Below are positions 6,338 to 40,062 of a stretch of 64,000 nucleotides of DNA, in pieces. This DNA comes from Psammoneis japonica (Eukaryota), in the NCBI GenBank assembly GCA_008632985.1, contig QPGO01000016.1, positions 282,840 through 346,839 on the forward strand, written 5' to 3'. The notes under the pieces were generated by a model that saw nothing but the letters and a program-made list of their open reading frames with translations, had not been told where the DNA came from and did no database searches. Within the stretch, counting starts at the first letter, position 1, and each line of letters begins with the position of its first letter. The translations under genes were made by a program, and so were the position numbers.

Positions 6338-7600
6338 TCATGGCGACATGATGAAATCAAGTGCCGCAGGAAAATGACATGTTCTGGCATCACACACCAT
6401 GATGGGATTTGAGATTGGTCTTTTGTTTGCAGAGATGCGGAGTTTCACGACGACTCCAAAACACGGGCCACACACACAGCAGGAAGGACCATGCTTGTGG
6501 AGGCAAGCAACACGAGGAAAGAGACCTGTCTTGAATCTGTGCATGTCCAATTTTAGTGCAGACTCATTTTTCACTGAGTTCCCCAAACCTTTTTGTTGAA
6601 CTGCCTGTTCTGTCCCCAGTGCTTGCAGCAATTTTGCCATCCCCAGCAACCCCCCTGCAGCAAGTTTGCCATCCCCAGTGACCCTCTGCAGCCACACCCA
6701 GTGAAAAAGAGCTGGCATGACGTGGAGCCAAACAACCCCAAGCATCCTTCTTGTGCTTGATGACAACTTCGTCAAAGGAACTCTCTCGTTCGTCCAGGAG
6801 TTTCTCAGCCTCATCCAGCATCAGTCCTTCAGCCATGCGAACCAAGCATTCAGCATCGTTGCATTCTCCCGGAGGAAAAAAGCATCCCATGCCACAGTGT
6901 TGACATCCTCGGAGACCACTGGGCTGAAAGTAGAAACACCAAATTGACGGGACGGTTCAACAAGCAAAAAGAAAAGAACTGTGATCCGTCCGACCCACAT
7001 CCGCTGCAGATTTTTGTCTTCAGAGCCCAACAAATCCTCCAGAGGCACTCCCAGGGCCTCATTGTCTTCATCATGCTTGTTGCAATGAGCATGGGGATGT
7101 TGTTCTGGAGGTCCACCCCAGCGCTCGGCACATGCCATGGGATGCCGTTGAGCCAGTTGCTCTTCCGCAAGATGCTTTGCGACAGCACGACAATGATCTC
7201 GTGCGCATTCACTGAGTCCAGAAGGAATTGTTTCAGGATCGTCATCATCTGTCTTGGGAGGCTGAGCAACAGGAATGTCTTGTCCGTTTTCAATCGTGGT
7301 GCCTCCGACACCACGGATGATGCACACTTGACATGGCAGCATGTTGGGTTGATTCCAAGCTGCCAAATCAAGACAGACAGACTTGTTGTGAAGGACTGCA
7401 CTCTTGTCCTTGCTGTTCTTTTTAAAACAAGCTCGCTGGCAGTCCACAGAGCAAAAGTGCGCAACTTTGCAATGGGAACAGCAGCACTTCAGGCTTGTCA
7501 TTTCTTGTTCTTGTTTGCCGCAGCCAAGACAGGCATGGCGAGGTGGAATCGGAGGGTCCAATGTGGGAACATGACGAGCAAAGGGGTTGTTCACAAACAT
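6338..7600 (-). pseudogene. MYND zinc-finger gene, TpA-hypermutated
   Basis: CLGCGK..CSHCKVAHFCSVDCQR..H..VC MYND pattern; no Tyr in the 259-aa ORF 6821-7600; TGA at 6821-6823 with a further in-frame ORF (6338-6814) downstream. Confidence 0.65.
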
Positions 7601-7637
7601 GGTTGTGTTTTGAAATAAAGAGTGAAAACAGAAAAGC

Positions 7638-8836
7638 TGACAGGATTTGAGCAGGATTTAGGTGCGCGCGAAATGTCGCGCGCTGTTTAGTTTGCTGTGC
7701 ACAGTTTTGTGTGCTTTAGTTCCGCGCGTTCGCGCGCGATGTAGTTTGCTTTCGAGCCACAAGGCTCACAAGAATGAGGCTCGGTCTGCAGGTGAACCAT
7801 GCCGGATCGGATTGCCAGATCGGATTGCGTCAGAATTCCGTCAGTTGACAGGTGGAACCGGGTCGGATCACAGATCGGATTCGACATTTTGATGAGTCGC
7901 AAAACGATGTAAGTTTCAAGATTCCAAATTCTCAAGAACAACAAAGCTGAAATGGCGAACAACAGAGAGAGTGTGGCCATGATGCTTCACATCTTGTCAT
8001 GATGAGACGATGTGACAACAGAACTGTGCTGTTGTTGCTGCTTTACATGCTCACTTGACCGCATCATTGAGCATCATTGTCACTCAGTGTTTGCAGCACG
8101 CTGAGGAAGAAAAAGCCATCACTTTTGCAACTCAGAAACTGACGCTGTGTTTTCGCATTGAAATTTAGAATTGCATGACAAACACTTGTTGTTTTGCTCA
8201 TTCAATGTTTCTCCAACAAATCTTTACGGCATCATCGGTTTGACAAGCTGTTCTGTTGCCACACGACCTTTTTCATCTCCATTTCAAGCATGGGAAGAGC
8301 AAGGCTGCAATGCTGAGGAAGTTCTGTGCCCTCATGGCTGAATGTTGTGCCGCCCTGTGTCACAATCGTGTGATGTTGCGCCATTGTCGTGATGACGGCA
8401 TGGAATCTTCCAAATTCGATCCGACATCTGATCCGGATTTTCGGATCGGACGGTCTTCGGAGCAAAATGTTTTGCTCCGAAGACCGTCTGATCTGAGATG
8501 GCAGATCAGTCCCACGAAGGCCACGGATCAACTTTTTGACTTGATGGACTGACATTTTAATGGGTCATGAAGGAGTCAATCCGGCGATCCGATCCGGCTC
8601 GGTTCACCTGTAGACCGAGCCTTTTTGACTCGATGGACTGACATTTTAATGGGTCACGAAGGAGTCGATCCGGCTCGGTTCACCTGTGGACCGAGCCTGA
8701 CAACAGCAGCCCGATCATGCAGACTCACACGTCTTTCGGCTCCTGCGACGGTCTCTGAGCGGAGACTCATCTGCCATTTGGACAGCAGCAAGGAGTCATT
8801 GTTTGAATTCTTGCCATTTGCCTTCAATTTCTGTCA
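7638..8836 (+). repeat. 5' LTR (7638-7777 plus 8701-8836), split by a TIR element
   Basis: The two halves align end to end with the 276-bp 3' LTR. Confidence 0.95.
7778..8697. mobile_element. Non-autonomous TIR element, PIF/Harbinger-like, inside the 5' LTR
   Basis: 21-bp TIRs GGCTCGGTCTGCAGGTGAACC / GGTTCACCTGTGGACCGAGCC; 3-bp TSD TGA (7775-7777, 8698-8700); empty site present in the 3' LTR; many subterminal GATCGGAT/ATCCGATC motifs. Superfamily call is inference. Confidence 0.9.
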
Positions 8837-9384
8837 GATCAACAGTCTTGCTCATTGTCAACCCATTGAGCAACCGCCATCGTCGTCGTTGATTTGCCGA
8901 CGACGCCATTTCAATTCTGCATGGACCTCCGCATGCATTCTACATACATCGGCAAGTCTGCGCGCATTCAACACCAGGCATCGGCAGGAATTTAACGTCA
9001 CCGTCAAGTCTCCTTGCCGCTGGACATCTGGATTGATTGTGCTGCCTTTTGTCGCTGAAGACATAAATTCAACGGTCATGTCCAAGTCTGTCCTTGATCC
9101 TCATCCCTTCACACACCCACTCAACGGTTGACGGTCAAGAACCCTGCACATTCAAGGATCTTCGTTGCTAAAGACACACTTGTGTGTGCATGTCTTCATG
9201 GCCAAGAACTTGCACCCACTCTTTGGACTGCGGCTTTGCTGCCACTCTACAAGCACACCGAGTCTGTTGCACCTGATCCACCCCGGACCACTGGTGCTCT
9301 GCAGTTCTGCTGGGTCCACGAGGACGACTGTGAGAGCAAGTGGCCGTGATTGCAGCCTGCGTTGGGGCGAGGGTGTTTTCCCAC

Positions 9385-10298
9385 GACTTGTTCCAGACTT
9401 AGGTGGCGCGCACATGCCCCTTTTCGCAGAAAAAATAATTTTTTAATGCTTTATTCAACACCTAACATATTTAATAAAATTGAATATATTAATGGCTTCT
9501 AAGTAAAATAAACAGAATAAACTCGAACAAACAAACAGCCAAACCGGCCATGGCTTTCAGTGACCATGACGGCCCACTTTTTTCAGCCTTATGGAAAATT
9601 GAATGTCATGACCAGGATCTCCGTATTTGATATAGTCTGTGTCATCAACAACAATAGTGAAAATGCTTGTTGAAGGCTGCAGCGCGGCACAATAATGCTA
9701 AATCTGTCAGCAACAACAATTGAGCCTCTATTCACTCACAATTTGCCTCTAAGGACCATTTCTTTTCTATTACCATGTATATTTCCTCAATATATTCGAC
9801 TGATTCAAGTGTATCAATCGTTTATGCCTTCTAAACCGTGAAAAATGGTCCGAAGTCGACGCCATTGCGTGGGCTGAGCTACACTTCTTCTCACGTCGTC
9901 CTAAACTTATTAATCAACGGATGCTTTATTAGATCCGTTGAGTGTAACTCGTATTCGCGTATATAAACAAAATATTAATTATGCTATGTTAAAGACTTAA
10001 TTTATATATATTAATAATATTTTATATGTTTCTTCTTACATTTAGGCATATATAAATCGCTCATCGGAAAATTCGAGCTCTCAACTTACGGTACAATTTA
10101 GCGACTAATGACTGAGTCCATCAACAGTTTCGAATACATGGGTACACGCACAAGACAATTCTGTATGTACCCATAAAAACACATTTGTAAATTGTTATGT
10201 TTTTACTATCGAAAATGGTGCCGCAAGTGTGGACCGCGCGTTTCATGCAAAAAGGGTCATTTTTTCGCGCGTGAGTGCACCCAAGTCTGGAACAAGTC
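9385..10298. mobile_element. Non-autonomous TIR element with 4-bp TSD
   Basis: 21-bp TIR GACTTGTTCCAGACTT(A/G)GGTG; TSD CCAC (9381-9384, 10299-10302); AT-rich non-coding interior. Confidence 0.88.
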
Positions 10299-10692
10299 CC
10301 ACGTTTGTTCGTTCGTCCACAGCGCCCAACGCCTGCGTCAGCTGGCCAGCCTGATCGGGAAATCCAACCGATGTAAAATGAGAACGGTTCGGGGGTCTTG
10401 TCCACCTCCAGTCAGCTTGCCTGCAGGGGTTTGCAACCCGCTGCTCCACTCGCAAGCAACCCAAAGCGCCACTGGCTGCGGGTTCGGATGTGCCAGCACA
10501 ACTCTACGGACCGGACAGGAAGTTCAGCACTTGACAACGAACGGGATGACACAGCCCAGCGACTTCTGATTTTAAGATGGTTCAAGATTTCAAGTCAAGT
10601 CTGTTTCAAGTCAAGTCTGTTCTCACCCAAGTTTCAAGTCTGCCTTCGCATCCCAACCAGAATCGCTTGTTCTGACACCGCTTTTGTCTGCC

Positions 10693-13600
10693 ATGGTTCT
10701 CACTCGTCAGCAACAAACTGATGGTTTCGAGCACCTTGTTGGAACCGTGCTTGCCCAAGGTGCTGGAAGCCCTCTTCGTTTGGCTTTGACCCACGACGGC
10801 ACGGACTCGCATCAAGAACTGTTCACGTTCATGCCGTCCCAAATCAACTCGCTTGAGTGCGACAACGGCACCAATGTGATCTCTTTGTCCCATGGTTATG
10901 AGAACATGTCAGCAGCTCTAGTCAGTCTGCACATTGTCAAAGCACACAAAGGTCTTGATGTTGCCAATGACTCCTCGTTGTTCACGCATGAGGAGTTCCT
11001 TGCCTGCCGCCTCAGCCCCAACTGCATGTCGTCTGTGTCCGTCGGCAGCTCGCCCCTCGCACCTCCGCATGTCACGAACCCGACCAAGGCACGTGACCCG
11101 GTGCGAGACTTCAAGCGAGGCATCAAGCGTGACCCCACTGCTTTCACGGCTCTCAAATCCAACAAGCAGTGGCACACTTGGCACACCTCACTTGTGGCAC
11201 AAGCCCATGCCCAAGACGTCGAGTGCACCCTAGACTCGTCGTACAAACCGACCAGCCCCGAAGACAAACTGCTCTTTGCTGAACAGCAAAAGCACATGTT
11301 CGCCATCTTCGAACGCATCCTTCTCACCAACAAGGGCAAGGCTCTCATTCGCGAAAATGTGGGGTCTTCTGACCCCCAGACCGTCCACCGCGCCTTGTCC
11401 GAGTGTGCGCTTGCCTCCACCCGCGCATCTGTCGAGTCCTCCACCTTGCTCACGCACCTTGCCACCGCACGTCTTGGTGATGGTGCTTGGAAAGGTCCGA
11501 CCCACGGGTTCATCCTTCATTGGCAGGATCATTTGCGCAAGTGCGAGGCACTCATCCCGGCCAGTGACCACTTCTCTGAAGGACAGAAGCGCGTCATGCT
11601 CGAGAATGCCGCACATCCTGTCGAGGAACTCCGCGCCATCAAGAACCAAGCTGATCAGCATCGCGCGCAGAGTGGCAAGAGCCTCACACATGATCAACAT
11701 TGTGGCTTGCTCCTCTCCGCGGCGGCCCAATGCGACAGCGCGTTTCAACCCAAGACAACACCTCGAGCTCCCCGACACACCACATGCGCGCACAACGTCC
11801 ACTCCGAGGAGCCATCCGATGATGTGTTCCATGACATCAACAGCGACATTGACGTCCTTCAGGCCAACGCTGCCTGCACTCGCGGTCCCAGCCTCACCGG
11901 TGACCAATGGAAATGTCTCCCCCCCGACCACCAACGGATTTGGGATTCGTTGCCCCACTCCTCCAAGGCGATCATCCTTGAGCATTCTCGTCCGCCTCCC
12001 CGCAACCCGCGAGCCAGCAACTGCCATGAGTCCGTTGCGGCCAACCTTCACAACCAACAACTTGGGAGCGACGGTGATGTCAACTTGTCCAACACGACTC
12101 CTGCTGACTCTGGTGACCCCGCTCCAAATGTGGACGCCACTTCAGACAATCCCATCCTGGTGCACCTCACCAATCGCAAGCCACTGCCACCCGGTGATCT
12201 GCACCACCTGTTGTCTCCTGACCAAGCCTCCAATGCCAGTCGACTGGGCCCATCCGCCACTCCCTCTACCTTGCCTGCTCCCACAGATGACGTGGAACTC
12301 AACGGCCGCACTTGCCGCCGCGTTGACAACCACAATGTCGTTTGCTCTGCCTCCGCTCATCGCTCCACACGCGCTGGTGCTCCAGTCGATCGTGGAGCCA
12401 ACGGCGGCGTTGCTGGCGATGACGTTCGCGTCATTGCATGCACCTCTTGCCAAGTCAATGTTCAGGGCATTGACGACCATCAATTGGTGGACATCCCCAT
12501 TGTCACCGCTGGTGCCGTCATTGAGACACAGCGTGGTCCCGTCATCGCCATCCTCCATCAGTGCACATGCATGGGAAAGGGCAAGACCATTCACTCCTGC
12601 GGCCAGCTCGAATGGTGCAAACATGATGTCAACGATTGCTCTGTCAAGGTGCCCAACAGCTTGCAACGCACCGCCACCCCTGATGGCTGTGTCATCCCAA
12701 TTGACATCAAGGGCAGCCTGCCTTGCACTGCCATGCGACCCTGCACTGACGCCGAATGGGACACCCTGCCCCATGTCATCCTCACTGGTGATGACACATG
12801 GGACCCTTCCGTCCTTGATCACTCTGTCACTGACGACGACCAGTGGCACGACGCGATCTCTGACCTGCAGGACGATCCCACTGCCAACCTGTTTGATGAA
12901 TGTGGCAACTGCCGTCACCGTGTCGTTGTCAACAAGGCCATCATGTCCGCCTCCTTCTCTGCCGATCACGCGTCCGCCCTCGATGACCACCTCATTCCGA
13001 ATGACGACGTGTTCTGCGAGTGTCATCTGCACGCGATTGACCCCAAGGATGACAATGTTCCAACCCCGGAGCGCACTGTGCAGCCCAAGGACCCCCCCTT
13101 CGAGTCTCTTCGGCCTTGCTTTGGCTTCCTGCCTGCCGATGCGGTCCGTCGCACTTTTGACTGCACCGCGCAGTGCGTCCGCATGCCCGCCGGCACACAC
13201 CTTAGGAAGGCCTGCAAATCACCCAACCCCACCCTTAATGTGCACCGCCGCAACGAGCCTGTTGCCACTGACACCATTTGTGCCGACACCCCGGCCATCG
13301 ACTCTGGTCACACCAGCGCCCAACTGTTTGTTGGCACCGAGTCTACCGTCACTGACGTCTGCGGCACCAAAACGGACAAGGAGTTTGTCAACACACTCGA
13401 GGATCAGATCCGTGAGCGTGGTGCTCCATCCAAACTCATTGGCGACCGTGCTCAAGTTGAGATCAGCAACAAGGTGCTCGGGATCCTACGAGCCCTCTTT
13501 GTCTCCAGCTGGCAAAGTGAGCCTCACCAGCAACACCAAAACTTTGCCGAACGTCAATGCCAGACCGTGAAGCACATGGCAAACACTGTCATGGACCGTT

Positions 13601-16600
13601 TCAGTTCGCCTGCCCACACATGGCTGCTGGCGCTCATGTGCGTGTGCTTCATGCTCAACCACACAGCATCCCCACATCTCCACTGGCGCACGCCCCTCGA
13701 GACTCTCACTGGCTCCACCCCGGACATCAGCCCATTGCTTCGCTTTCACTGGTGGGAACCTGTGTGCTTCCACCTCGATGACTCCAATTGGCCGTCCGAA
13801 TCCCGTGAGTTGTGCGGACGCTTTGTTGGCATTGCTGAGCACGTCGGCCACCAGATGACCTTCAAGATTCTCTCTGACGACACTCAGAAGATCCTCTGCC
13901 GGTCCAACGTACGATCCGCTGCCACCGATCCTGCCGTTTGAAACCTGCATCTTGATCCTCCTGATGGGGAGCCACCTGAACCCATCATCAAATCTTGCCA
14001 TGACGACAACCCCGTCGATTCACCCAATGGGGAGATCAGGACACCCAAGATGCCAGTTTTTGATCCGCAAGACATCATCGGACGCACCTTCCTCATGCAG
14101 CCACAAGAGGACGGACAATGCCACAGAGCTCGCATCGTCAAGGCCGTTGAAGACCACGAATGGAAAGTGAACGGCAACCCTGAGCTCACTGAGTTCGTCT
14201 GCTCTGTCAACAACGATGAATGCGAGGAAGTCCTGGCCTGCAAGGACATCATGAATCACATTGAGCAAGAAGACGAAGACACTGCTGTTTGGAAATTTCG
14301 ACGCATTGTGTCACACGAAGGACCTCTGAAGCCTCATGACCCAACCTGGAAAGGCTCAAGCTACAACATCATGCTTCAATGGGAAAGTGGGGAGATCACG
14401 TCCGAGCCTCTTGCCATCATCGCCAAGGACGACCCTGTCACCTGCGCCATCCATGCACGAGAGAACGGACTTCTCGACACTGATGGCTGGAAGCGGTTCC
14501 GCACCATCGCGAGGCGCCAGAAGAAGCTGTTCCGCATGGCCAACCAAGCCAAGCTTCGCTCCTTCCGCACTGCACCTCGCTGCAAGTGCGGACACGAAGT
14601 TCCCCGGAACTGCAAACACGCCATGTCACTGGACGAACGCAACGGCAACCGCAAATGGGGAGACGCAACTAATCTCGAGATGGACCAACTCGATGAACAC
14701 GAAGTCATTCATGACTGCGGGCCCTCCGAGTCTTCCACTCCTCCTGCAGGACACAAGAAGATCCGAGTGCACCCGGCGCACGACGTGAAACATGACGGCA
14801 GCCACAAGGCACGACTCACAGCCGATGGGCACCTCACAGATGCACCCATCGACAGTGTCTGCTCCGGAGCAGTCTCCCTCCGTGGCCTTCGGCTGATGAT
14901 TTTCCTGGCCGAACTCAATGAGTTGGAGACATGGGCCACCAACATTGGCAATGCCCACCTTGAAGCCACCACCAAGGAGAAGCTGTGCATCGTAGCTGGA
15001 CCCGAATTTGGCAAACTCGAAGGCCACATTCTTGTCATCCACAAGGCCCTGCATGGACTGCGCAGCTCCGGCCTCTGCTGGCACGAGCGCTTCGCCGACT
15101 GCCTGCAAGCTGAAGGTTTCTTCCCCTGCCGTGCCGAACCCGACATTTGGATGTGCAGGAACGGCGACCACTGCGAATGCATTGCCGTTTGTGTGGATGA
15201 CCTCGCCATTGCCATGAAGGATCCTCAATCTTTTGTCGACACTCTCACGGAAAAGTGCAAGTTCAAGCTTGAGGGCACGGGACCGATTGAGTTCCATCCA
15301 GGCTGTGACTTTTCCCAGGATCCTGACGGTGCCTTGTGCCTGTCTCTGCGCAAGCACATCGAACGCATGGTCGACAGCTGCACACGACTGTTTGGGGAGA
15401 AACCTGCCACCAACGCCCTGTCACCTCTGGAGAAGGGTGACCACCCCGAACTGGACACTTCCGAACTGCTGGGGCCTGATGGCATTCAACAGCTCCAGTC
15501 TCTTGTTGGTTCACTCCAATGGGCAGTGTCCCTTGGCCGAGTTGACATTGCCACGGCCATCATGTCACTCTCTAGCTTCCGAGCTGCGCCCCGTCAAGGC
15601 CACTTGGATCGTGCCAAACGCGTCTGTGGGTGCCTCTCCAAGATGCGACACGGCGCTCTCCACGTTTGCACGGAAGAGCCCGACTGTTCGGATCTCCCTG
15701 CTCCGGCCCATGAATGGATGCATTCCGTGTGCGGCGAGGCAGAAGAGATGATCCTGAAGGACGCTCCACCGCCCCTTGGCAAGTTCGTCACCAGACGTGT
15801 TCCAGTCCCAGGTGACGCACAAAACAACAATCAGATTTTGAATGTAATTTATGCACATTTTAGCGCACACAGCATTTTGACAAAAATGCTCAAAGGGATT
15901 GACTTTTGTGGGCTTCTAGAGCATGAACATTTAAATGGTTTTTTGAGGGGCATTCAAATCCTCATGGGACATGTGTCACAAACTTCCTCAGCAGACTCAA
16001 TGCTGATTGTGCGCCAGCAGATTTACACTGAGATTCTTTTGCAGGTAGAAAACCTGCCAAGTGGCATCGCAGGAAGACACATTTAGGTGACATCCAAATG
16101 ACGGCAATGTTTTCGCCGAAAATCATCCGTTGTGTTACGAATCTTTTCACGCAATGAAAAACACAGATGGCACAACAACAATGACATTGCAACACTCACA
16201 TGAGTCTTGTCAGTGTTGCAAAACATTTGTGTTTGTACAAATCTGTGCTTTTGGTGGTGAAAGTTCGATCGCAAGTTAGGGACCGCGCAAAAATCGTGCA
16301 AATGTCGTTTTTGTGCACGATTTGGTTCACGTGCGGCTGGAACACGTCACCACCACCCACTGCGTCAATGCAAACTTGCACCATTGCATGCTCACCGGAT
16401 GCTCTGTCATGGGAATGCTCCACTTCCTCAACAAATTCCCTGCTGATTGGTTCTCTAAGAAGCAAGCCACCATGGAGACTGCGACCTGCGGGTCTGAATT
16501 TGTTGCCGCAAGGACTTGTGTCGAGCAGATTGTCGACCTGCGCATCACCCTGCGCTGCCTCGGCGTCCCGATCCGTGACATCAGTTGCATGTTCGGTGAC

Positions 16601-16921
16601 AACAAGTCAGTTGTGGACAGTGCCACCATCCCGCACTCCAAGTTACACAAGCGACACACCGCACTGTCGTTCCACCGTGTGCGTGAGGCAATTGCCTCTG
16701 GTCACCTTGAGCTCCACTTCATCGAAGGATCCCGCAACCCTGCTGACATTCTCAGCAAGCATTGGGGTTGCTCCCAAGTCTGGGACCTTCTCCACCCCCT
16801 CATGTTCTGGAACTTCATTCCATCCGAAGTCGAATCTGTTTCTGTGACTCCTCAAGCAAACTGGGGAGTGACAGGATTTGAGCAGGATTTGGGTGCGCGC
16901 GAAATGTCGCGCACTGTTTAG
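10693..16921 (+). pseudogene. Copia gag-pol polyprotein, inactivated
   Basis: gag FKRGIKRD; protease VDRGANGG; integrase VATDT..GDRAQVE..SEPHQQHQNFAE; RT KARL, NIGNAHL, KALHGL, VCVDD; RNase H SKKQATMETATCGSEF..NPADILSK. In-frame TGA at 13939-13941 (likely CGA->TGA) and an insertion at 15794-16348. Confidence 0.95.
15794..16348. mobile_element. Non-autonomous TIR element with 4-bp TSD, inserted at the start of RNase H
   Basis: 12-bp TIR GACGTGTTCCAG; TSD ACCA (15790-15793, 16349-16352); removing it restores the frame GKFVTTTHCVNANL. Confidence 0.9.
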
Positions 16922-17144
16922 TTTGCCGCGCACAGTTTTGTGTGCTTTAGTTCCACACGTTCACACGCAATGTAGTTTGCTTTCGAGCCACAAGGCTCAC
17001 AAGAATGACAACAGTGGCCCAATCATGCCGACTTGCACGTCTTTCGGCTCCTGCAACGGTCTCTGAGCGGAGACTCATCTGCCATTTAGACAGCAGCAAG
17101 GAGTTGTTGTTTGAATTCTTGCCATTTGCCTTCAATTTCTGTCA
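16869..17144 (+). repeat. 3' LTR (276 bp)
   Basis: TG...CA ends, preceded by the PPT and followed by the TSD. Confidence 0.96.
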
Positions 17145-17536
17145 AAAGCATCCGTGATCAACTTGTGAACCAGATCAATGTCCTCACTATTTTCGTCGAT
17201 CATCATCCACAGCGCATAGACTGACAGACAGTGTCGGAGGGAGTTCTCGCTCGCGCGCTCGAATGCCGCGCGATGTCGGAATGACGTGTTCCGGATAGGG
17301 GCAATAGGTGTGTGACGCGACGCGTCGTGCAATTTTCCGTTTTCGGTGTGTGAACTTTACAGATTTTTTTCTTGCATACATACATAACTTTCTCATGTTG
17401 CGATTGCAGCAATGGCGTCGTTGTTTTGTTGTCATCGTCCATAGAGAGCGTCTTGTGTGCATCGTGTCTAGTGTGTAACTCTATGTATGCGTCCTTTGAT
17501 ACTGATATTTTTATATAGATAAGTTTTGAAAGTAAA

Positions 17537-19014
17537 ATGGGAAATAATCAATCCTCGTCACAAGAACAAACAAACAGCGACAACGCTCCACCGCCGCAGC
17601 TCCTCCACCTCGTCCCAAACACTTGCTTTGGGGTTGTGAAACGGCCGACGAACACTATGCCGCCATGGAAGAGGCTTGTCGACTCGCGAGCGAGTATCAT
17701 GGAGCAAAGGGTCTCGAACAATTGGGATTTGAGTATCGCATGGTTCACGCGCACCCGTGCGATTGTGGAGCTCATTCAGATGTCGATGTCGAATCGTGGA
17801 GTGATGACGACAATTCTGTAGCAGCCGAGGAGGAGTATGAATCTGAAACAGAAGAATTCATGATTCCACTGGGAGAAGCCATCAAGGATCATTTACCCCC
17901 AGAGGGTGGGACGTTTGTGGAAATGGAACGATCCGCGTCGGGCAACATTCGAACACCACCGATTATGCATAGAACACAGAGCTCGGCAAGTCTCTTTTCA
18001 CTTGCAACTCATCATTCCATGGGAAGCAGTGTTACATCGTCCTCCGAACAGTTGGGTCCACCCATGCATATTGTACAGGGTCATGAGCATAATAACGTGG
18101 ATCACGAAACGTGTGCCATTCGATTGTTTCATGTTGCATCTGGCGTCTTGGTGACGGAAAAGAATCATCAAACATTTGTGGCACACGGGAAAATGTATGA
18201 CGAAATTGCACGACTGTGTATGGAATTTGCACAAGATTTGATTATAAGTGAAGGCGATTTGGAATGGATGACGATTCGCAACGAGGAACCCAAAATTCGT
18301 GCACTCGTGAGTCGAGATTGCTCTCGCAAACGGACGCTTCTCGTCGTGACGGGAAAGGGCAAGGTGGGTGCTGGTATTTTTTCACGACGGCTCCTCATGA
18401 CGCTGGGGATCGAACCAGCGTCGGCCTTGCCCTTTGTACGAGAAGCGGTAGCCCGAGACATGAACATTGTCGTGTTGGATCCCAATTGTCATGGGACACA
18501 GACCGCCATGCAAGTGGTCGAAACGAGTTTGGAGAGGCTGTTTTGTAAACAATGCAATGATGAATTTTACTTGCTCGCGCACAGCATGGCCGGGTCTCAA
18601 CTTGTACGATATTTGCTCAACAAGGCGGAAAGTACCGTGACTGAGAACAAACCCGCTCGGAATGCCGCAAACGAAACGGCTCCTGCCGTGGATCAATGCG
18701 TCAGGCAATTCAAAGCGGTCGCCTTTACAGATTCCAACCACAATATCAATTGGGTCAAAAAGTACCCATCCATATCTAACTTTTTAGTGGGCCCCCGCAG
18801 TTTGTACATCAAGTCGCACAAGGTGCATCAAGATGCCAAGGCACTCGGAGAGGCACACCATGACTGTCAGTACTGGCGGCATCGATTTGGTGAAATTCGA
18901 ACCCTTTGGGCAGGGACCAAGGAACACGCTTTAACCAATTACACGGCACGATTTCACATTTGGAGGCATTTTGATTCGTTCCTCAATGACGATGGTGACG
19001 ACGGCGTGGAATAG
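17537..19014 (+). CDS. Arb2/FAM172A-like alpha/beta-hydrolase-fold protein; one frameshift near 17590
   Basis: LLVVTGKGKVGAGIFSRRLL..SALPFVREA..IVVLDPN, AHSMAG and VAFTDS match the FAM172/Arb2 pattern; the MGNNQSS start (myristoylation-like) is in another frame. Confidence 0.8.
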
Positions 19015-23295: not shown

Positions 23296-24049
23296 CAGAA
23301 AAGGACTTTTTTTAATACTACAACACAATGGTATATCTAACAGCAGCACCAACAGCGACACAATACACACAGTAATGTCAAAGATGATAGGCCCTTTGCA
23401 GGTGTTGTTGTGTTGCTGTCTCGTTTCGTTATGCAGGAAAAAAAGATCGCGCAAAGATTCAATCTTATTGTATACGAAAATTCAAACATAATAATAAAGA
23501 ATTGTCTCTCAGTACGGAATTGTAAGAATGTGTTCAGGAACAGTCGCACGCACGGCGGTCAGATGTAGACGAGCGGAAGAGGTTGTTGATTGCGTTTTGC
23601 AATGATGATTTACGATTTCAGCCAGCCCTGAGCAACATTTTTTTCTGGAACAGCAGGTCTGCTCAGTTTCTAAACATGGTGACTCTCCAACAATGTGGAG
23701 TGTTGCAGTTGACCTCCACTCCCTTCTTGGTTGGCTGTTCCTTGCAGATTCTGAACTGACCGACGACAACGGCCTGCCAGCTGCTGCTGGCACAACCTCA
23801 GAGGTGCACGCCAGGACAGTGATGGCAACATGGCACCAGTCAGAAAAAAAACTGAGTGAAGAGTGATCCATGAGATCCTTTGACAACCAAATGTGCCAAC
23901 GTGTGTCCACTGGGTGTGTGACCACATGGTTGTGAAATGAGAAGAGAAAACTGTGAGGCAGATTGGCACGAGAGAGCTGCCAACTGGCCAACAGCAGATG
24001 AGGGGGGCACAACCACACAGCAGCCATTCAATGAAAGTGCCCCATCAAT

Positions 24050-24420
24050 CAGTGGGGCATGGCAAGCCCAGCCTGCCTTGGCAAGTGCACCCATTGGGTT
24101 GATGATGCCAGGGGTGTTTCTGGCACAAAACAATCTTGTTGACCTCCTGATGCTGGCTTTGGATTGCAAAGTGTCGGGTGTCAACATTTCATCAGTGCTC
24201 CTTGGCAGGAATCTGACAGTTGGTCATTTTAAGAGTGCCAAAAAGGAGCTGTTAATGCAGAGGGGCATTGGCCCCTTTTGAGAGAAACCAAGTTCTTTCA
24301 AGACAGATGGAAGGCATGGGGTTTGTTTGGCAGCAGCAGCACATGTGACAAATTCCACCTCAGTGGAGCCAGCCACTGTCAGGGGTTGCACTGCACAAAC
24401 ATGAGCAAGAAAACAGCCTT
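24050..24420 (-). mobile_element. Degenerate copia RNase H relic of a second family
   Basis: QPLTVAGSTEVEFVTCAAAAKQ..SVLKELGFSQKGPMPL, then NVDTRHFAIQ and PGIINPMGALAK in shifting frames. Confidence 0.75.
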
Positions 24421-24534
24421 TCAGTGCAGAGTTGGCAGCAAGCACACATTGTTCTGGCAAAAGCCATGATGTGCACAGTGGTCAAATGCAGGAGCCAAGA
24501 AGGCAATGTTGAGCATGCATTGTGCATGAATTGC

Positions 24535-25277
24535 AAAAGCTGTGCAGCGCAGAAAGATGTGGGGCAAAGGTTGTCAGCAAAAGCTGCAGAGGGTGCAGAA
24601 AGCTGCAGGGAACAGGTTTTGCTCAAATGCTGTGGGGTGCAGGTTTTGCACAAAAAGCTGCCAGGTGCAAACAGCTTTGGATGCAGGTTTTGCACAAAAG
24701 CTGCAGGGCGCAAAAGTGAATCTGTGGGGTGCAGGTTTTGCAAAAATGCTGTGGGGTGCAGAAAGAAACTGTGGGGCACAGTGTTTTTCACAAAACATTG
24801 CAGAGTGCAAAAAAGTTGCAGGGTGCAGGTTTTGACACAAAAGCTGTGGGGTGCAGGTTTCATGCAAAAAGATGTGGGGGTGCAGGTTTTGCACAAAAAG
24901 CTGCAGGGTGCAGATTGTGCACAACAAGCTGTTGGGTGCAGAAAGCTGCAGGGTGCAGGTTTTGGGTTTTGCACAAAAAAGCTGCCAGGTGCAGAAAGCT
25001 GTTGGGTGCAGGTTTTTGCACAAAAAAGCTGCCAGGTGCAGAAAGCTGTGTGGGGTGCAGGTTTTGCACAAAAAAACTGCCAGGGGTGCAGAAAGCTGCG
25101 GGGTGCAGGTTTTGCACAAAACGATGCAGGGTGCAGAAAGCTGCAGAGTGCAGGTTTTGCACAAAAAGCTGTGGGGCACACAAAGCTGTGGGAGAGCAGG
25201 CTTTGCACACAAAGCTGTGGGTGGGGTGCAGAAGCTGTGGGGGTGCAGGTTTTGCTCAAAAGCTGTGGGGTGCAGAG
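24535..25277. repeat. Degenerate minisatellite of two alternating modules
   Basis: Repeated GGGTGCAGGTTTTGCACAAAAAGCTG and GGGTGCAGAAAGCTG modules over about 740 bp. Confidence 0.9.
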
Positions 25278-25289
25278 ATGAACCTGCCT

Positions 25290-25640
25290 GGACAACAAGA
25301 GCGGTTGTCATTGCACATTTGCCAGCTTTCCAGATTCAGTCAGAACATCTCCTGCAAGATGACCACCTTTCTAAAAATGCATTGTTGAGCCTCATGCTCT
25401 TGACTTCATCTGTCAGGTGTCATTGAAACAAGTGTTGAGCCCCCTGAGCTTGGTGTCAGTTCCCCAATGTCACGTGCTGCTGCTGCTGCAGAGCTCAAGC
25501 TGTTCAAACCAAGATCAAGATGTTGTGAGCTTGTGATGTTGCTGACATGACTGGGGAGACTGTCCATCATGAGGGCACCCTCAAATGACAACAGGTTGCT
25601 TGGCAAAGTGTTTTGTGCCACTTTGGCGAGGTCAGCCAAG
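25290..25640 (-). pseudogene. Possible LRR gene relic
   Basis: LPSHVSNITSSQHLDLGLNSLS and LAGDVLTESGKLANV resemble LRR units; heavily decayed. Confidence 0.4.
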
Positions 25641-26234
25641 TTTCCTGCTGACAGCCCATGTTTTCACAAGCCTTGAAGACTTGCAGATGTTCATGGTTTG
25701 AGTCCAAAAGACTCACGGAGATCCAGCAAGCCTTTTTGTTGGAATCACTCAAATGAGTCAAGCCAGGAGGAGCAAAAAACCCAAAGGGCTGTTTCAAGTC
25801 CATTGCCAAGTTGGTTGTCATTTTCCAGGTGCATGCATTGAAGATTTGAGACCTGGAAAAGTGGTGGCAGCACACTGCTCAATGTGTGTTTTCAGACAAA
25901 TTCAATCTCCCAAGTTTGTCTCCACCACAAAAAGCTCATTTTGTGGCTTCCCATTCAGTCAACAGCCCATGCAGTCAAAGGACCAGAGTCTTGGAAGGTT
26001 TCCAATGTTGGCAAAGATGGCTCTGTCAATGTCATTGCTCTGTCCCCAGCAACACAGCTTCTCACAAGAAGGTTTGGCAGCGAGACCACATCAAGTCCAG
26101 GGTGGCTGCCATCTCCAGGTCATTGATGAGCAACAAGTGGGGCAGCAAGGTGCCAATGGATTGTGTGGAATGTTCCCATTGCAAGATGAGCCAGCGCATC
26201 TCCCACTGCCCACTGAGTCATGGGCAGCGGTGCC

Positions 26235-26720
26235 TTGGTTCAAGCCAACATTGACATGCCTGTCATTGTTCAGCTGAGCCTGTTGCTGATCTGCAATTGC
26301 TGCAACACTCAGTGCCAAGCACACTGTGACCAAAACAGAAGCTCCTTCAATCTGTCCCATTTTCAAAGTCATGTTCAATGCCCAATCCCAAAACAAGTGT
26401 CATTGCAGCTGAAATCAAAAACAACATGAGCATGGCAGAGTTGGCCAGTGCCACCCAAATCAACTCAAATGAAACATGCTTGGCTGACAGAGGCACAGCG
26501 TTGGATCTGAAGGTCCTGTGTCAGGCCAAGCTTGATGTTGGCACACCAAAATTAGACCACCAATCCCTTGACACCCTGAAAGGCAACAATGGCTCCCAGT
26601 TGTCCATTGGAAACAATTGTGGCCAGTGACTGGAGTCTTGCCCAGTGTCCCATGACCCTTGACTGGAAACAAGCCACACACCCGGCACTGTTCTTGTTGG
26701 AATCACCCCCTTTAAGACAG
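26235..26720 (-). pseudogene. Decayed paralog of the 5' part of the Ca2+-ATPase
   Basis: Aligns to about 22755-23280, e.g. IEGASVLVTVCLALSVAAIAD vs [21 protein letters not shown]. Confidence 0.85.
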
Positions 26721-29138: not shown

Positions 29139-32100
29139 GGATCAACCTCCAGCCTTCACGAGGTTTGTTCCTTTGCGAAGGTCGAATGAGAAAGCTTTCT
29201 TCGATGTCGTGTGTGACGTTGCGACGTTGCGCACGCAGGAAGAATGGAATTCGAAATTTTGATGACGCCATCAAGTTCAACAAACCCGGCTTTTCAGATC
29301 GTGCGCGGTTTTGAATGTACTACTGCTGTACTGCACTGGGGCCCCATCAGACTCTACCGGATGTGCACTGTGCTGTAGAGTGCATGTCTGTCTGGCTTCT
29401 TTTCGTTCCATTTTCTAGTGTGTGTCCCTGGCCATTTTGTTCAAACGCTTTTTCGCAGCAGGGGATTTCAGATCTTGTGGTCACAAAACCCAAAAAAAAT
29501 CCACAAGGTCTCATCGGTTGGCGCCTGCTGGTTTCCATTGAGGGTGCAATTTTTTCTGTCATTTTCTGCACAAGCAATTCTTTGTGCGGAGCCCCCAAGT
29601 GCTCTCTCTTGTGCTCATTTGGTGGCATGAGGGTGATGGCTGCAGAGACAAATGCAGCAAGCACAATGCCGTCATCTTCAAAGCTTTTTCAATGCTGGCA
29701 TGTTCCCAGCACAATCCAGTCGGATTTTGGTCAAGATTGCCGCTGTCCCCACCAAATGTGGGCCTGCTTTGTCTCTTTGTCAGCATGGCTCAGGCTTCTG
29801 CTGGTGCCATTGAAAAAGTTGGTGACAAGGTTGAGGGGCTCAAAGTTGGCAACCAAGCTTGCAGCCATGTGGAAGAGCTGGTGGGCTTGCCAGGGGCTCC
29901 TCTGCAGAGCACGCAGCAAACCCAAGAATTCTTTGTGCATGGGGGCAAGTTGGCAACCAAGCTTGCAGCTGTGCAGGGCAGCTGGCAGGCTTGCCAGGTG
30001 CTCCACTGCATGGCGCACTGCTGCCAAAACAAAACTTCCTGTTGTTGCAGCAAAATCCAAGAATTTGAGTGTGGAGGAAGCTGCTTGGTGCACTGCTGCA
30101 CCGCTGGCGGGTGTGCTGCCACTGCTTGCAAAAGACTGATCTGTCACAGAGTTGGGCAAAATGCTAAAAACGAAGAAGGTGGCATTTGGCATGTTGCACA
30201 CTGCAGCGCACACACAAACAAGCACTTTGGCTGGCTTTTCAACTCACTCAACCTCCTGTGGAGAGAGAGGTGTCTCAAGGAGCAAGCAGAGGCAAGCAAG
30301 CCATTGGGCATCGCAACAGCAGCTGGTTGCAAGAAAGAAAGTGCAGAGTCACAAAATAAAAACACATGAACAGGAAAAGATTTGCAATGGTCGTGCAAAC
30401 CAGTTTGGCTCAACCCCCCCCCCCAAATGCACCAAAAAGTCTGACAAAGCCAAGATGCCAAATGCAGCAACACTGTGCCAACTGCCAACACATCTGTGAA
30501 ATGGACTTGACCCAGGCCCATTTCAGGGATCTGTCACTTGCTCACATTTTCCTCATGTTGACCCCAATGTTGCACAATGTGTTGCACAAAAAGTGTGGAA
30601 GAAGACACTGGCCCATCTTGCTGAAATCTGTTGATCTGGTGGCTTGCAGCCAATCCATGACAAGACAGACTTCAAACCAGCAGAAGGGGTTGGTGAGGCT
30701 CATGCTCTCATCTTCTTGACAGTGCAAAAGCAACAGGGCAAGGCTGCAGCTAAAAACTGAGTCCTGCAGAAAGAACAGCACAGCCACTCTCTAGATGTGT
30801 GTGGAGTTCTGGGCAGTGCTGGCACTTTCTGCTCAATGGGTGGACTTCTTGGTGCACAAGAATGGCCCAGTTGACCAAAGGTGGTCAAAAGAAGGCAGCT
30901 TGGTTGTGCAAAACATGGCATGCAAAGGAAGGCACCAATGTCAGTTGACCAATGCTCTCCTTTCAGTGCCCAGCAGCACAAAACACACATGTGCTGCTTC
31001 AGCGACTCAGCTCTCAGTCAGCAGCCCGCCATGCACTCCCAGACAAATGGCGCCAGACTCTTTGGTGTGCATGAAAAAACTTTCCACTGGCTCTCCAATG
31101 CCTTTTGTCAAAAACATGTTTGCACACCCTGCAGCTCAAATGCAGGTGAACATCAGCGGGGCCCCTGGTTGGACAACTGACCAGCAGGTTCATCTTCCCC
31201 AAACCTTCAGTCTGCTTGAGTCAGCAACCACCAACCACAGTGCTGAGACAACATTGCTGCCCTTGTTGCCACTGCATTGTCCCTTGAAAAGGCCCTGCAG
31301 TTGTTTTCATTGCAGCCCACTCAGAGCAAATGTTGCAGCTCAGCATTGTTGCAAGAGAAAGCTTGACTGCCAGCAAAAAGAAATGGAAGCCCCCAAAACA
31401 TCTCACAGATGGCCATCCAAAGGGCAAATGGTGGTCATGATCAAACTTGGTCAGCCTCAAACACAGCACACCAACAGCCAATTGATCATGCAGGACAATG
31501 TCAGGAGCAGATTCAAGGCCTTTGTCGCACATTTGATGTGTGCTTTGACTGGTGGCAGGTGCCATCGATGTGCTGTGAAAACATTCCAAGACAAGCCAAC
31601 AAATGAGGTGGAGCCCACCGTGCACCCACAGCTCACATCACATCAAGATGGTGCCAACAACCTTGCCAAAGATGTGATGGCACAGCCAGAGAGAGCTGAA
31701 ACCATCCTGCCAAAGAACCCGCCAACAACACACAAGCTCATCTTCTTTCCACAAAGACAGCCAGCCAGAGCTCAGCTTGAGAACACCAAGACACACTCCA
31801 AAGTTGAAAGTCCTGGCTGACACAAGCTCTGACTCAGCAACACACATGTTTGTCAACTGCCAATGGCACATCTCCAACTCCTGAAAGATGTCAAGTGTCC
31901 TGACAAGATGGGAGGCCACAAGATGTTGGATTTCTGATGCAGCCACTGCTGCGAGCTGCAGTTTTCTCTGTGCAGTCAATGACCATCTCCTTGACATCCT
32001 TGTGTGAGAGAAAAGGTTTTGCAAAGACATGGAGAAGGACAAAGCAACACATGTGATGCTTGCAATGTTGATTTTGCTGTGCACATGGAGGGCAGTGGTG

Positions 32101-33624
32101 GTGTGCTGGTGTGGACTGGGTTCTTGCTGGTTGCCCTCCAATGTGTGGCCTGCTCCACAGCACTTGGTGCACAACACAGAAAAGCACAAAAGCTGTCAGC
32201 CCCTGGTGGAGCACAGATCTGGCAAGCTCTGTGTGCCTCAGCTGCAAACTGCATGTTCCACAACCCAAGTTTTCTTGCACCTGCTCTTGCAAAATCATGT
32301 GCAACATTGTGAAAAGACACACACAAGACATTTTCCATGCAAGAGGATGTCATTGGCTCACTCTTGAAGAGCAGGTGCAGTCACTGACGATGCTTCTGAC
32401 TAAGTCACTTGGGTGTGACTCACCTGACTTGTCATCTGGCAGTGCCCCAGAGTGAAAAATGCTGGCAAGTGAGTCAAAAATCAAAAGAGGAGCAACTGCA
32501 TGATTCACACGGGGAAGAAGCATTTGCCGTGAGTGAAGAGCAAGTGCTGGAAAAACTTGCAGGACAAGAAAGGAGCACAAAAATGGGGTCTGGGCACAAA
32601 AGCAAGAAACACTTGGCAAGACATGATGGAACAAAGCAAGGCTTTGCTGCAGCTGCTGACTTGGTTGCTTCTCATGCCAGACTCTCTCCTCTGGCTGCAC
32701 CATCTTCCACATCCTCTCAGAGCAACAAAAGAGTGTGCCAAGCTGCTCATCCAACTGTGGAGACCTTCTTGTGCAACAAATGTTAGCAACCTTGTGGCAC
32801 TTGCTGCACAGCCTTGCCAAATGTCTGGAAAGTCAGAGGCGTGCACATGGCACATGTGCGCCTCTTGTTGTCAAGCATCTGGTCTGTTTTTGTCATGTTG
32901 CTGCAGTCTAAAGGGCACCTTTCAGCCAAAATGGGCCAGGCCCTTCCACCAGCTGACAGGAATGTTTTCTCTCTCCACCAGCTTCCTTTGAGCTGGTTTC
33001 TCTGCTGCTCATGCTGGGCTGGCTCTCTTGTGTCCAGTGTGTTGTGGTGCAAGATTCCCAGTGTCAAAAAATGAGCACAGATTTTTGTGAAGTTAAACTT
33101 GGCAGGTGGTGCAAAAACCTCCTTCATCAAGAAGAGAAGCCCCTGTCTCAAGCCAGAATGAAAAAGTTGTGCCTTGCAAGCAAATGACTTTGGACCACAA
33201 ATGCTCACACATCTCACCCTCCTGCTCACTCAACCAGTTTCATCTTGATGACTCTGCCACCATTGCAAACTTGACTCAGTTCTAAGTTGAAAGGCACTTT
33301 CTGTGCCAGCTCTGATTCGCGTCCTGTGCATGGAGAGCGGCCAGCCAGCTTGCCATTTGCTGTGAAAGTCACAATGGTCATGAGTGTGTCTGTCCACAAG
33401 AACAATGACCGTGGGCATGTGTGATCTTTGAACAGTCATCAACATTGACACATGTCTTGATGAGATTCATCATCTGTCCAAAATGACCTCTCCATGAATG
33501 AAATCGGCAGAGGTCATTGCTGCACTCCATCCCAAGCTCATGTTTTTCCAAAAATCAGATGAGAGAATGACATCTCCAGAACACAACATGCTTTTTTTCA
33601 CTTGCTCAAAGCACAGCAAAAGAT

Positions 33625-34208
33625 GAATGACACAAAGTCATCTTGTCATGAAGATGTCACACAAACCATGATGATTTGTTGGCGCCTGCTGTTGGAGATG
33701 GATTGCCGCCTGCTTCCAAGCAAGCAACGCTGGAGACTGAGCAGATGTCACATGCTTTGAGAAGGCCAAAAGAACATGACGCAATGAGAAATGCTCTCGA
33801 CTGCAGCATTGAGCCATCTTGTGGCAATGACAACATCTCATCCTCTGTCGAATGTTCAACGACTTGTCGAAAATTCACAAAATGAAATTAATGCACAGCA
33901 TGGCAAAGCCTGTTGGAGATCAATCTGATGGAGAACTCCCCAAAGGAAGGCCATCAAAAACAACAATGCACGTGCGGTTTCAACAGTGTGACAATGGAAC
34001 AAAAACCACCATCTTGGGCCCGCTTCTCAAGCCTTCATCCGAAATGAGCAAGGACAAAAAGGAAACAATCTGGCAGCAGCAATCCGATTTTCATGTGTTT
34101 GCCAAGGACACTGCAAGCATTTGCTGTCATCAAGGTTGGTTGTCAGAGAATGACAGTGGATCATGCACCTCAACGTCATGCAAGGTTTGTAAAAAGTGCT
34201 CTTCTTGG
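33625..34208 (+). pseudogene. Truncated, hypermutated copy of the gene at 37453-38351
   Basis: KPVGDQSDGELPKG..LGPLLKPSSEMSKD shared with the intact copy; ends at the duplication junction. Confidence 0.88.
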
Positions 34209-34449
34209 TGCAGTTTTCTCTGTGCAGTCAATGACCATCTCCTTGACCTCCTTGTGTGAGAGAAAAGGTTTTGCAAAGACATGGAGGAGGACAAAGCAAC
34301 ACATGTGTGATGCTTGCAATGTTGATTTTGCTGTGCACATGGAGGGCAGTGGTGGTGTGGTGTAGACTGGATTCTTGGCTGCCCTCCAATGTGTGGCCTG
34401 CTCCACAATGCTTGGTGCACAACACAGAAAAGCACAAAAGCTGTCAGCC

Positions 34450-39494: not shown

Positions 39495-40062
39495 GGTGTT
39501 ATGTTGTTACAGGTACTTTCGATAGTATTCCTGCAAGTACGAGAAGCAGACAACAGCGTTAAAAGCATATGAAACCAAAGCGTTTCGCACCCTACTACTT
39601 CCAAGTCTCACCTGAATGGCCGCCCCGTCGTTAACGATTCGGAGACCGAAGCTCCGGTCTCATTGTTGTGATGAGTAGTAGGGGGTACCGGTACCGGTAG
39701 CGGGGGCATTTGCCAAGTTTTCGGATCGGGTGTTGAGCTCAATCAAATCTGTGTCTGTCATGCATCATGCGGCCCTCACTTCTATCTCCGCAACCTCGCT
39801 CTACTCTAGAGTAGCTACTCTCTACTAGAGAGAGACTACTCTCTCTAGCTCTCTAGAGTAGGGCCCTAGCTAGAGATTAAATACCGGTAATGCTACCGGC
39901 ATCCGTCCACCAGGTACAGTAGTAGTGGTTCGTAGTCTGATGTACTGTACTGGATACGACCTACCGTAAGTAATGGAGATAGGACAGAATCTTTCCTATC
40001 TTCGACAAACACTACCCGGTATTCTTATGCGTATCCAAAGCTGCAGTGGGCATCTAATTATT

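Follow-up and report, generated by a model that had tools for sequence, protein, structure and literature searches.

A TA-depleted Ty1/Copia retrotransposon of Psammoneis japonica and its probable TpA hypermutation

We analysed 64,000 nucleotides (nt) of contig QPGO01000016.1 (positions 282,840 to 346,839, forward strand; Psammoneis japonica, assembly GCA_008632985.1), here called the window, which carries at positions 7638-17144 a complete Ty1/Copia long terminal repeat (LTR) retrotransposon with LTRs of 276-279 nt, a 5-bp target duplication and three later insertions of terminal inverted repeat (TIR) elements. The coding part of this element is nearly devoid of the dinucleotide TA, and we consider it probable that a process converting TpA into TpG or CpA, and aimed at mobile DNA, destroyed this Copia copy after its insertion, with loss of CpG alongside. 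The changes obey a context rule, have a defined polarity, are confined to mobile elements and include hits later than the duplication of the LTRs. By analogy, the process would be the same as the TpA hypermutation described in Bigelowiella natans, and would represent a genome defence comparable to fungal repeat-induced point mutation (RIP) acting with the opposite polarity.

TA depletion and layout of the Copia element

The stretch from 10250 to 17000 is nearly free of TA. Only 14 TA are found in the 5,075 nt between 10576 and 15650 (observed/expected ratio, o/e, 0.06), in agreement with the sequence-only reading that preceded this work, which had counted about 14 in about 5.1 kb; at the background o/e, 133 would be expected there (Poisson P for 14 or fewer = 1.2e-39). 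The whole of 10693-16830 contains 27 TA (o/e 0.09), and in the non-depleted window DNA (39,105 nt) the o/e values are 0.57 for TA and 0.95 for CG. TG is raised to 1.67 and CA to 1.40 in the focal element, and its GC content reaches 0.54-0.58 compared with 0.47 in the background. The edge of the depletion is sharp, as it stops at the LTR end (17144), and in the Copia interior a TA o/e of 0.07 goes together with a CG o/e of 0.82. Because TAA and TAG cannot occur in such DNA, long open stretches are present in all six frames. Among the 19 TA that survive in the interior (10297-16868), 12 are preceded by C (P = 0.007); CTA may be a context disfavoured by the mutator, or these TA may have been regenerated by later changes. 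GC-biased gene conversion among copies was considered as a source of the depletion and rejected, since TA alone is lost, AA, AT and TT occurring as often as expected (1.00-1.09).

The extent of the element had previously been given as 10693-16830; the whole element is larger (7638-17144) and is organised as follows.

7633-7637, plus strand: left target-site duplication AAAGC, identical to the letters right of the 3' LTR
7638-8836 (7638-7777 and 8698-8836), plus strand: 5' LTR, split by the 920-nt TIR element; termini TGACAG...CTGTCA
7778-8697, unstranded: 920-nt TIR element in the 5' LTR; inverted ends of about 21 nt, GGCTCGGTC...CAGGTGAACC; 3-nt duplication TGA
8837-9378, plus strand: leader after the 5' LTR; TA o/e 0.20
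9379-10296, unstranded: 918-nt TIR element in the leader; ends CTTGTTCCAGACTT...GGTG; 7-nt duplication TCCCACG
10693-13938, plus strand: gag-pol frame, its initial 1082 codons beginning with ATG; 2 Tyr; integrase-like core
13939-13941, plus strand: lone in-frame stop TGA; P, R, K or Q in this column of the relatives
13942-15786, plus strand: pol continued in the same frame; RVT_2 at about 14743-15378, CVDD (formerly YVDD) at 15190-15201
15787-16345, unstranded: 559-nt TIR element between reverse transcriptase (RT) and RNase H; ends GTGTTCCAG; 7-nt duplication GTCACCA; TA o/e 0.24
16346-16868, plus strand: RNase H end of pol; ETATCGSEF at 16475, purine run GGGGAG adjoining the 3' LTR; TA o/e 0.07
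16869-17144, plus strand: 3' LTR, 276 nt; TA o/e 0.23
17145-17149, plus strand: right target-site duplication AAAGC; the flank is back to normal TA density

The two parts of the 5' LTR are 93.6% and 92.8% identical to the 3' LTR (16869-17008 and 17006-17144, respectively), and the LTR hallmarks of Ty1/Copia are present, namely direct TG...CA repeats about 93% alike, a 5-bp duplication and the GGGGAG purine run. The focal pol is colinear with that of full-length relatives (1,850-1,900 amino acids, aa); by tblastn, residues 76-1687 of the relative P0003 correspond to 10870-15792, and residues 1686-1851 to 16346-16843. The Pfam domain RVT_2 is still recognised in the focal copy (E = 4.5e-19; 69.5 bits, cut-off 31.6), with a score below the 87-110 bits of four intact relatives. 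The corresponding comparison for the integrase domain rve is uninformative, as Pfam rve has no match in the focal copy and none in the intact relatives either. Upstream of the RT, a profile built from 15 relatives weakly matches, at its positions 890-991, the solved core of a retroviral integrase (E = 0.0074); this profile has the invariant residues D854, D912 and E947, spaced by 58 and 35 residues, with the RT further downstream (1340-1551), and the focal copy keeps the triad in EPVATD (13255-13272), GDRAQ (13441-13455) and FAERQ (13543-13557). The element is an ordinary Ty1/Copia retrotransposon that was probably once functional, integrase followed by RT being the Ty1/Copia order. Its frame runs about 25 codons beyond the end of the relatives (16844-16921) and terminates at a TAG within the 3' LTR; the same loss of TA may have removed the original stop of pol.

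Loss of tyrosine and context of the substitutions

Using the integrase-bearing part as query, 1,105 relatives were obtained (E <= 1e-10), the best full-length ones being 50-62% identical. The tyrosine counts reported earlier proved exact, with 2 Tyr in the 1082-aa open reading frame (ORF) at 10693-13938 and a single one in the 586 aa that follow; none is present in the RNase H part (166 aa). Tyr makes up 0.16% of the focal polyprotein, compared with 3.84% averaged over 69 full-length relatives, and Cys (3.95 versus 0.90%) and His (5.62 versus 3.53%) are raised; the lowest Tyr content among 240 relatives was 1.85%. In an alignment of 45 relatives, 38 columns hold Tyr in at least 80% of them, and here the focal copy displays Tyr once, Cys 24 times, His 9 times, Phe 3 times and Leu once, residues other than Tyr being mostly preserved at conserved columns. 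As a control, Tyr to Cys or His replacements at the same 38 columns were counted in each relative: 34 of the 45 have 0, 8 have 1, 2 have 2 and a single one has 11. Mismatches at conserved columns number 116 in the focal copy, against a median of 40 (range 18-82) in the 45 relatives. The five altered motifs that had been picked out by eye were all borne out by the consensus of these relatives (VYEYIAVYVDD>HCECIAVCVDD, GNAYL>GNAHL, KALYGL>KALHGL, ETATYGSEF>ETATCGSEF and VHLVYDVK>VHPAHDVK).

We then mapped to DNA the codons of the 708 columns with at least 80% agreement among the 45 relatives. The focal copy differs at 121 of them, and these differences fall into (i) 44 that require one TA>TG (31) or TA>CA (13) step, (ii) 30 that require one CG>CA (23) or CG>TG (7) step, and (iii) 47 that are neither. 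As single-base reversions they comprise 34 A>G (31 after T), 15 T>C (13 before A), 23 G>A (23 after C) and 8 C>T (7 before G); TpA or CpG is the context of 74 of the 80 inferred transitions, and TpA that of 44 of the 49 A>G/T>C changes. The occurrence of both TA>TG and TA>CA means that both strands were hit, as had been proposed, and the anticipated codon changes Y>C, Y>H, V>A (GTA>GCA) and L>P (CTA>CCA) were recovered together with I>M and first-position T/A>T/G changes. Intact relatives carry YVDD and ALYGL, and the changes in the focal copy concentrate on TA.

Two parts of the sequence-only reading have to be modified. It had portrayed mutation at TA alone; the 44 TA steps agree with this, and the 30 CG steps form a second signature beside them, so that, with 21 single-step transversions and 20 changes needing at least two steps, TpA is not almost the only type of mutation present. 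The changes other than those at TpA may represent a separate, slower decay and ordinary divergence within the family. It had also described inactivation by missense changes with no frameshift, which holds except that there is one in-frame TGA (13939-13941) and that the TIR element at 15787-16345 shifts the frame, because its 559 nt are not a multiple of three. This insertion is the sole frame change in pol and coincides with the tblastn break between P0003 residues 1687 and 1686.

Timing, sister copies and other depleted DNA

The two LTRs differ at 19 of 279 aligned positions, which include 2 TA facing TG, 10 CG facing TG or CA, 3 adjacent CA/TG doubles and 1 transversion; no transition outside the TA and CG contexts was seen among the 279 positions. 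In every double, the 5' LTR has CA and the 3' LTR has TG, while the CpG losses run in the opposite sense (CG>TG twice in the 5' LTR, CG>CA 8 times in the 3' LTR), so that the most likely origin of the doubles is an independent TA hit in each LTR. TA hits thus arose after the LTR duplication. If the loss followed integration, the original TA content can be estimated at about 200-270, reduced to 19 (about 90-93% gone), which corresponds to 2.4-2.7 hits per site.

Sister copies were studied in contigs from run X1, the only sample with the focal locus; no RNA run is listed as containing it. The family is highly repeated, with 14,544 X1 contigs over 9.9 kb and a summed depth, not to be taken as a copy number, about three orders of magnitude above that of the flank contigs (31.8 and 34.6). 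Variant places in these contigs comprise 642 transitions versus 103 transversions. Among the 40 of 766 variant places listed, 32 are transitions, of which 26 have TG or CA in the focal copy where others have TA (13) or CG (13), and the TA and TG/CA states often coexist among copies at the same site; likewise, many positions of the leader (8837-9378) read TG or CA in the focal copy and TA in other copies. As TA is retained in sister copies at these sites, depletion is not a trait of the family. A short-fragment protein search with the RT segment returned no copy of the same family, the best match being 68% identical. In one contig, whose depth of 33.9 is that of a single copy, position 7619 is followed by ten differing letters and then by position 17144; this contig likely represents an empty-site allele, in which case the insertion is hemizygous. 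The right flank is represented by two haplotype contigs, one with 0 differences and the other with 4 differences and 9 gaps in 185 nt.

The three nested TIR elements differ in their TA content. The first (7778-8697) has a TA o/e of 0.11 and a CG o/e of 0.93, contains internal tandem repeats (8532-8698) and belongs to a repeat family of lower summed depth in the X1 contigs; a 3-nt duplication is the habit of PIF/Harbinger elements, and the target was perhaps TAA or TTA originally. The second (9379-10296) is TA-rich and not hypermutated (TA o/e 0.86, GC about 0.38), although it lies inside the TA-free domain, and its family is repeated in the X1 contigs with copies about 12-15% different. Contigs of other Copia copies skip from 9378 to 10297, and one contig skips from 15786 to 16346; the insertions at 9379-10296 and 15787-16345 are therefore private to the focal copy or to few copies. 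These two elements resemble each other in a terminal motif (..TGTTCCAG..) and in the 7-nt length of their target duplications, and may belong to one superfamily, one being partly depleted (0.24) and the other not. Since two nested TIR elements are depleted (o/e 0.11 and 0.24) and such elements move as DNA, no RNA or cDNA stage is required for the loss of TA.

Conserved Tyr to Cys or His replacements were scored in 223 profile-aligned relatives, of which 213 have less than 10% and 7 have 30-55%. The proteins concerned from the environmental Copia set are listed here.

Environmental Copia proteins: P0075, P0121, P0123, P0176, P0190, P0206, P0240

The DNA of relatives of P0206 was taken from contigs of microbial-mat metagenomes (80 loci, of which some 60 belong to one Copia family with 75-86% protein identity), in which the TA o/e of the matched part lies between 0.27 and 0.91. 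Against the majority reference, the excess of A>G/T>C at TA is significant after Bonferroni correction in 9 of 49 distinct copies (25/69 versus 21/419 in locus L055). Terminal-branch changes, defined as those where a copy differs from its nearest neighbour and the neighbour agrees with the majority, affect 113 of 3,029 TA bases versus 213 of 17,768 other A/T bases in the 49 copies (odds ratio, OR, 3.2; P = 5.5e-20), and 279 of 4,583 CG bases versus 212 of 14,963 other G/C bases (OR 4.5). On the terminal branch of L055 the figures are 28 of 85 TA bases versus 10 of 393 other A/T bases, and 3 of 125 CG bases. Loci L001-L073 display partial TA-specific hypermutation, and in L055 about two thirds of the TA are gone while CpG is almost intact. 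The same "TA first" bias thus occurs independently in an unrelated Copia family of another host, at intermediate stages.

Within the window, a composition profile in steps of 500 nt revealed further depleted blocks.

6500-7637, unstranded: adjacent older repeat; TA o/e 0.06, CG o/e 0.46
23600-26500, unstranded: depleted block; TA o/e 0.03, CG 0.11, TG 1.79, CA 1.99; no Pfam domain
29450-37000, unstranded: depleted block; TA o/e 0.05, CG o/e 0.24; internal direct repeats of 1.07 kb, 88% identical
49000-50000, unstranded: depleted block; TA o/e 0.02, CG o/e 0.16
60500-62000, unstranded: depleted block; TA o/e 0.05, CG o/e 0.15

All five blocks combine a low TA o/e (0.02-0.06) with a low CG o/e (0.11-0.46), and TG and CA rise up to 1.5-2.0. 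The best-preserved elements have a TA o/e of 0.07-0.11 with a CG o/e of 0.82-0.93, and the unrecognisable blocks are depleted in both; from this order of preservation, the loss of TA is ahead of that of CpG. A Pfam scan of 57 ORFs of at least 110 aa from the depleted blocks gave one chance-level match and otherwise nothing. The block at 29450-37000 has direct repeats at 32191-33261 and 36026-37100 (88%) and a second pair at 31957-32201 and 34209-34449. This block may be an old nested LTR element, and its repeats also differ by many changes outside the TA and CG contexts.

The host genes of the window are not TA-depleted. There are 13 uninterrupted host ORFs of at least 300 aa. One host protein carries DUF6824 (E = 4.6e-21), and its three nearest atlas clusters possessing this domain are eukaryotic with Bacillariophyta as the commonest phylum (scores of only 0.79-0.80); the best homologue of a host glyoxalase was 55% identical, and no named eukaryote was among the homologues. 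Stretches of 500 nt with high TA lie beside host genes at 39501-40000 (o/e 1.33) and 55501-56000 (o/e 1.06). A host gene with an Arb2 domain (E = 9.3e-10; 17665-19014) is located directly to the right of the transposon nest, a neighbourhood that is probably coincidental.

Explanations and related systems

We propose that, once the element had inserted, A:T to G:C transitions on one strand or the other would have turned TpA into TpG or CpA, orders of magnitude faster than background mutation, and that a slower conversion of CpG to TpG or CpA would have gone on alongside, most simply by deamination of methylated cytosine. As to the chemistry, one may speculate that adenine is deaminated in DNA by a deaminase resembling ADAT2/3, an enzyme whose natural tRNA target, A34, always follows U33.

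It seems unlikely to us that the RNA or cDNA of the element was instead edited at UA/TA before integration, by an ADAR-like enzyme or by a deaminase working on cDNA in the way that APOBEC3G acts on the single-stranded cDNA of HIV, so that the copy was born dead. Such editing would agree with a depletion that ends exactly at the LTR ends, and copies that differ in state at the same sites are expected from editing at birth too. It would also suit the sense bias at the conserved Tyr columns (24 Cys to 9 His) and the mild clustering of same-type hits along the element (14 runs against 19.3 expected; one-sided P = 0.025), which hints at strand-coordinated events; we draw no conclusion from the strand bias. 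However, a single edited RNA strand is insufficient to give both 31 TA>TG and 13 TA>CA on the sense strand, the depletion extends to two TIR elements that move as DNA and to blocks without a retroelement domain, and the LTRs were hit independently, a point that editing of cDNA after the LTR duplication could still accommodate. In B. natans, moreover, the signature arises in resident integrated DNA, according to the main text of the preprint (10.64898/2026.01.13.699255). To a modification of thymine we attach a similarly small probability: thymine in TpA would be modified or oxidised to 5-hydroxymethyl- or 5-formyluracil by an enzyme of the TET/JBP type, and its mispairing with G would lead to T>C. 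Dinoflagellates offer a precedent, as 5-hydroxymethyluracil there replaces thymine preferentially in TpA and TpC, and T>C at TpA on one strand is indistinguishable from A>G at TpA on the other. Nothing in our data speaks directly for this chemistry, and the authors of the preprint, in its main text, favour adenine deamination, solely from an ADAT2 homologue (10.64898/2026.01.13.699255).

Far less credible is an artefact of assembly or base calling, in which heavily modified bases of silenced repeats would be misread as TG or CA. Only 42% of sampled 31-mers of the stretch are present in run X1, and among the contigs listed none matches the focal copy for any great length or spans the whole stretch; yet contigs by construction omit rare variants, 2,694 X1 contigs are at least 99% like the stretch, the contigs built from reads contain both TG/CA and TA alleles at high depth and show no error in the flank, and independently assembled metagenome contigs and proteins share the bias. 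The least probable account is that the family intrinsically avoids UpA/TpA, for the sake of RNA stability or against TA-targeting insertions. TpA is indeed scarce throughout the window, as the background o/e shows, but an avoidance of this kind does not accord with the replacement of 33 of 38 conserved Tyr, the catalytic YVDD included, with the lowered RVT_2 score, with the TA retained at these sites in sister copies, or with the depletion of unrelated non-coding repeats.

Several observations weigh against hypermutation after insertion, or limit how far it can be pressed. An untouched, repeated 918-nt TIR element in the midst of the depleted domain has to be explained by a very recent arrival or by targeting that is selective. 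The LTRs and leader are less depleted (10 TA in 818 nt) than the interior (19 TA in 6,013 nt), and the dating of TA hits after the LTR duplication rests on five LTR sites, two singles and three doubles. With a non-context LTR change of 0.0018 per site per LTR, the rate ratio amounts to roughly 1,300-1,500 times background, a figure with a very wide interval, as it derives from one background event (95% interval 0.025-5.6) and assumes that all TA loss was post-integration. The strand preference is inconsistent, Tyr>Cys exceeding Tyr>His in the focal copy (24:9; P = 0.014) and TA>CA exceeding TA>TG in the metagenome family (223 and 151, respectively). In the environmental copies, a strict filter for private changes gave a mixed result (OR 6.1 for A after T; OR 0.4, not significant, for T before A); this filter discards recurrently hit sites, and the per-copy and terminal-branch tests were used in its place. 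Finally, the evidence consists of end states from which mutation is deduced.

A live system is available in B. natans. The main text of the preprint reports that, in mutation-accumulation lines of this alga, 231 of 302 nuclear mutations fell in an integrated giant virus and virophage, and that those in the viral inserts were almost exclusively A>G/T>C, all on TpA, at about 1000 times background and in some lines only (10.64898/2026.01.13.699255). The same source describes 124 TpA-depleted, TG/CA-enriched clusters in the genome, an enrichment of RT and DDE domains among TpA-depleted coding sequences, and an ADAT2 homologue proposed as the enzyme purely on the basis of sequence and fold (10.64898/2026.01.13.699255). 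Our locus agrees with B. natans in the TpA>TpG/CpA change on both strands, the restriction to foreign or mobile DNA and the rise of TG and CA as TA falls, and its rate may likewise be in the order of 1000-fold. In our window the restriction to mobile DNA follows from the block profile and the sharp edge at 17144, with one nested TIR element spared. In B. natans the process was caught live, in viral inserts that are single-copy, transcriptionally silent and only mildly depleted (Rho 0.45), whereas here a highly repeated LTR retrotransposon and TIR elements have reached a near-saturated end state (o/e 0.06) with CpG decay. A single-copy insert is hit in B. natans while a repeated TIR element is spared here, which bears on whether repeats are sensed. 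The background TpA frequency is 3.98% here compared with 6.0% in B. natans, and the genes here are intron-poor; together with the DUF6824 clusters, this offers a lead to a diatom host distinct from B. natans. CpG, LTR, Copia, retrotransposons and diatoms do not appear in the main text of the preprint, whose supplementary tables may list retrotransposon families (10.64898/2026.01.13.699255). A process of this kind, known from 2026 in one unrelated alga, is extended here to LTR retrotransposons and DNA transposons of a probable diatom.

In fungal RIP, C>T occurs mainly at CpA and creates TpA. The pattern at our locus resembles RIP in that context-specific transitions kill mobile elements in place by missense, leaving neighbouring genes alone, and departs from it in that TpA is destroyed and GC is raised. 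To our knowledge, no DNA-level hypermutation aimed at mobile elements was known outside fungi before the 2026 B. natans preprint. In a full-text search, the preprint was the one paper with this signature; searches of the literature on diatoms brought up no RIP-like or TpA process, and passages of the 2009 CoDi paper by Maumus (PMC2806351) contain no mention of hypermutation, RIP, deamination or dinucleotides. With ADAR and ADAT our locus has in common A>G changes with a 5' T or U, a preference mentioned in the main text of the preprint (10.64898/2026.01.13.699255), and the inactivation of an element by dense transitions. ADAR and APOBEC3 (G>A) act on RNA or nascent cDNA and on one strand, in contrast to the hits on both strands, in DNA transposons and separately in each LTR that are found here. 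CpG decay of the kind known from methylated transposons would account for 30 of the 80 inferred transitions and for 10 of the 19 LTR differences (CG>TG/CA), and most of the older blocks have a CG o/e of 0.11-0.24; it leaves the loss of TA unexplained, and lags behind it here (CG 0.82 at TA 0.07).

Overall, TpA hypermutation might be a general genome defence of marine protists and not peculiar to one chlorarachniophyte, a RIP in reverse that acts in place on LTR retrotransposons and DNA transposons of a probable diatom, reaches saturation sooner than the decay of methyl-CpG and is seen at intermediate stages in environmental Copia elements, and we lean slightly towards this wider view. If it is true, the process would exist in at least two branches of SAR (Rhizaria and Stramenopiles) and would erase nearly every Tyr codon and TAA/TAG stop from its targets; the environmental copies suggest that it is common where these Copia elements live. 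The locus provides a saturated example that can be interpreted cleanly, from a major lineage that is probably not that of B. natans, with an internal clock (the LTR pair, the nested insertions and the likely empty allele) by which TA loss outruns CpG decay. In TA-free, stop-poor repeats, gene callers can be misled by very long ORFs that are spurious and by "proteins" rich in Cys and His, and the TA observed/expected ratio offers a one-line screen for further hosts and, by their comparison, for the enzyme.

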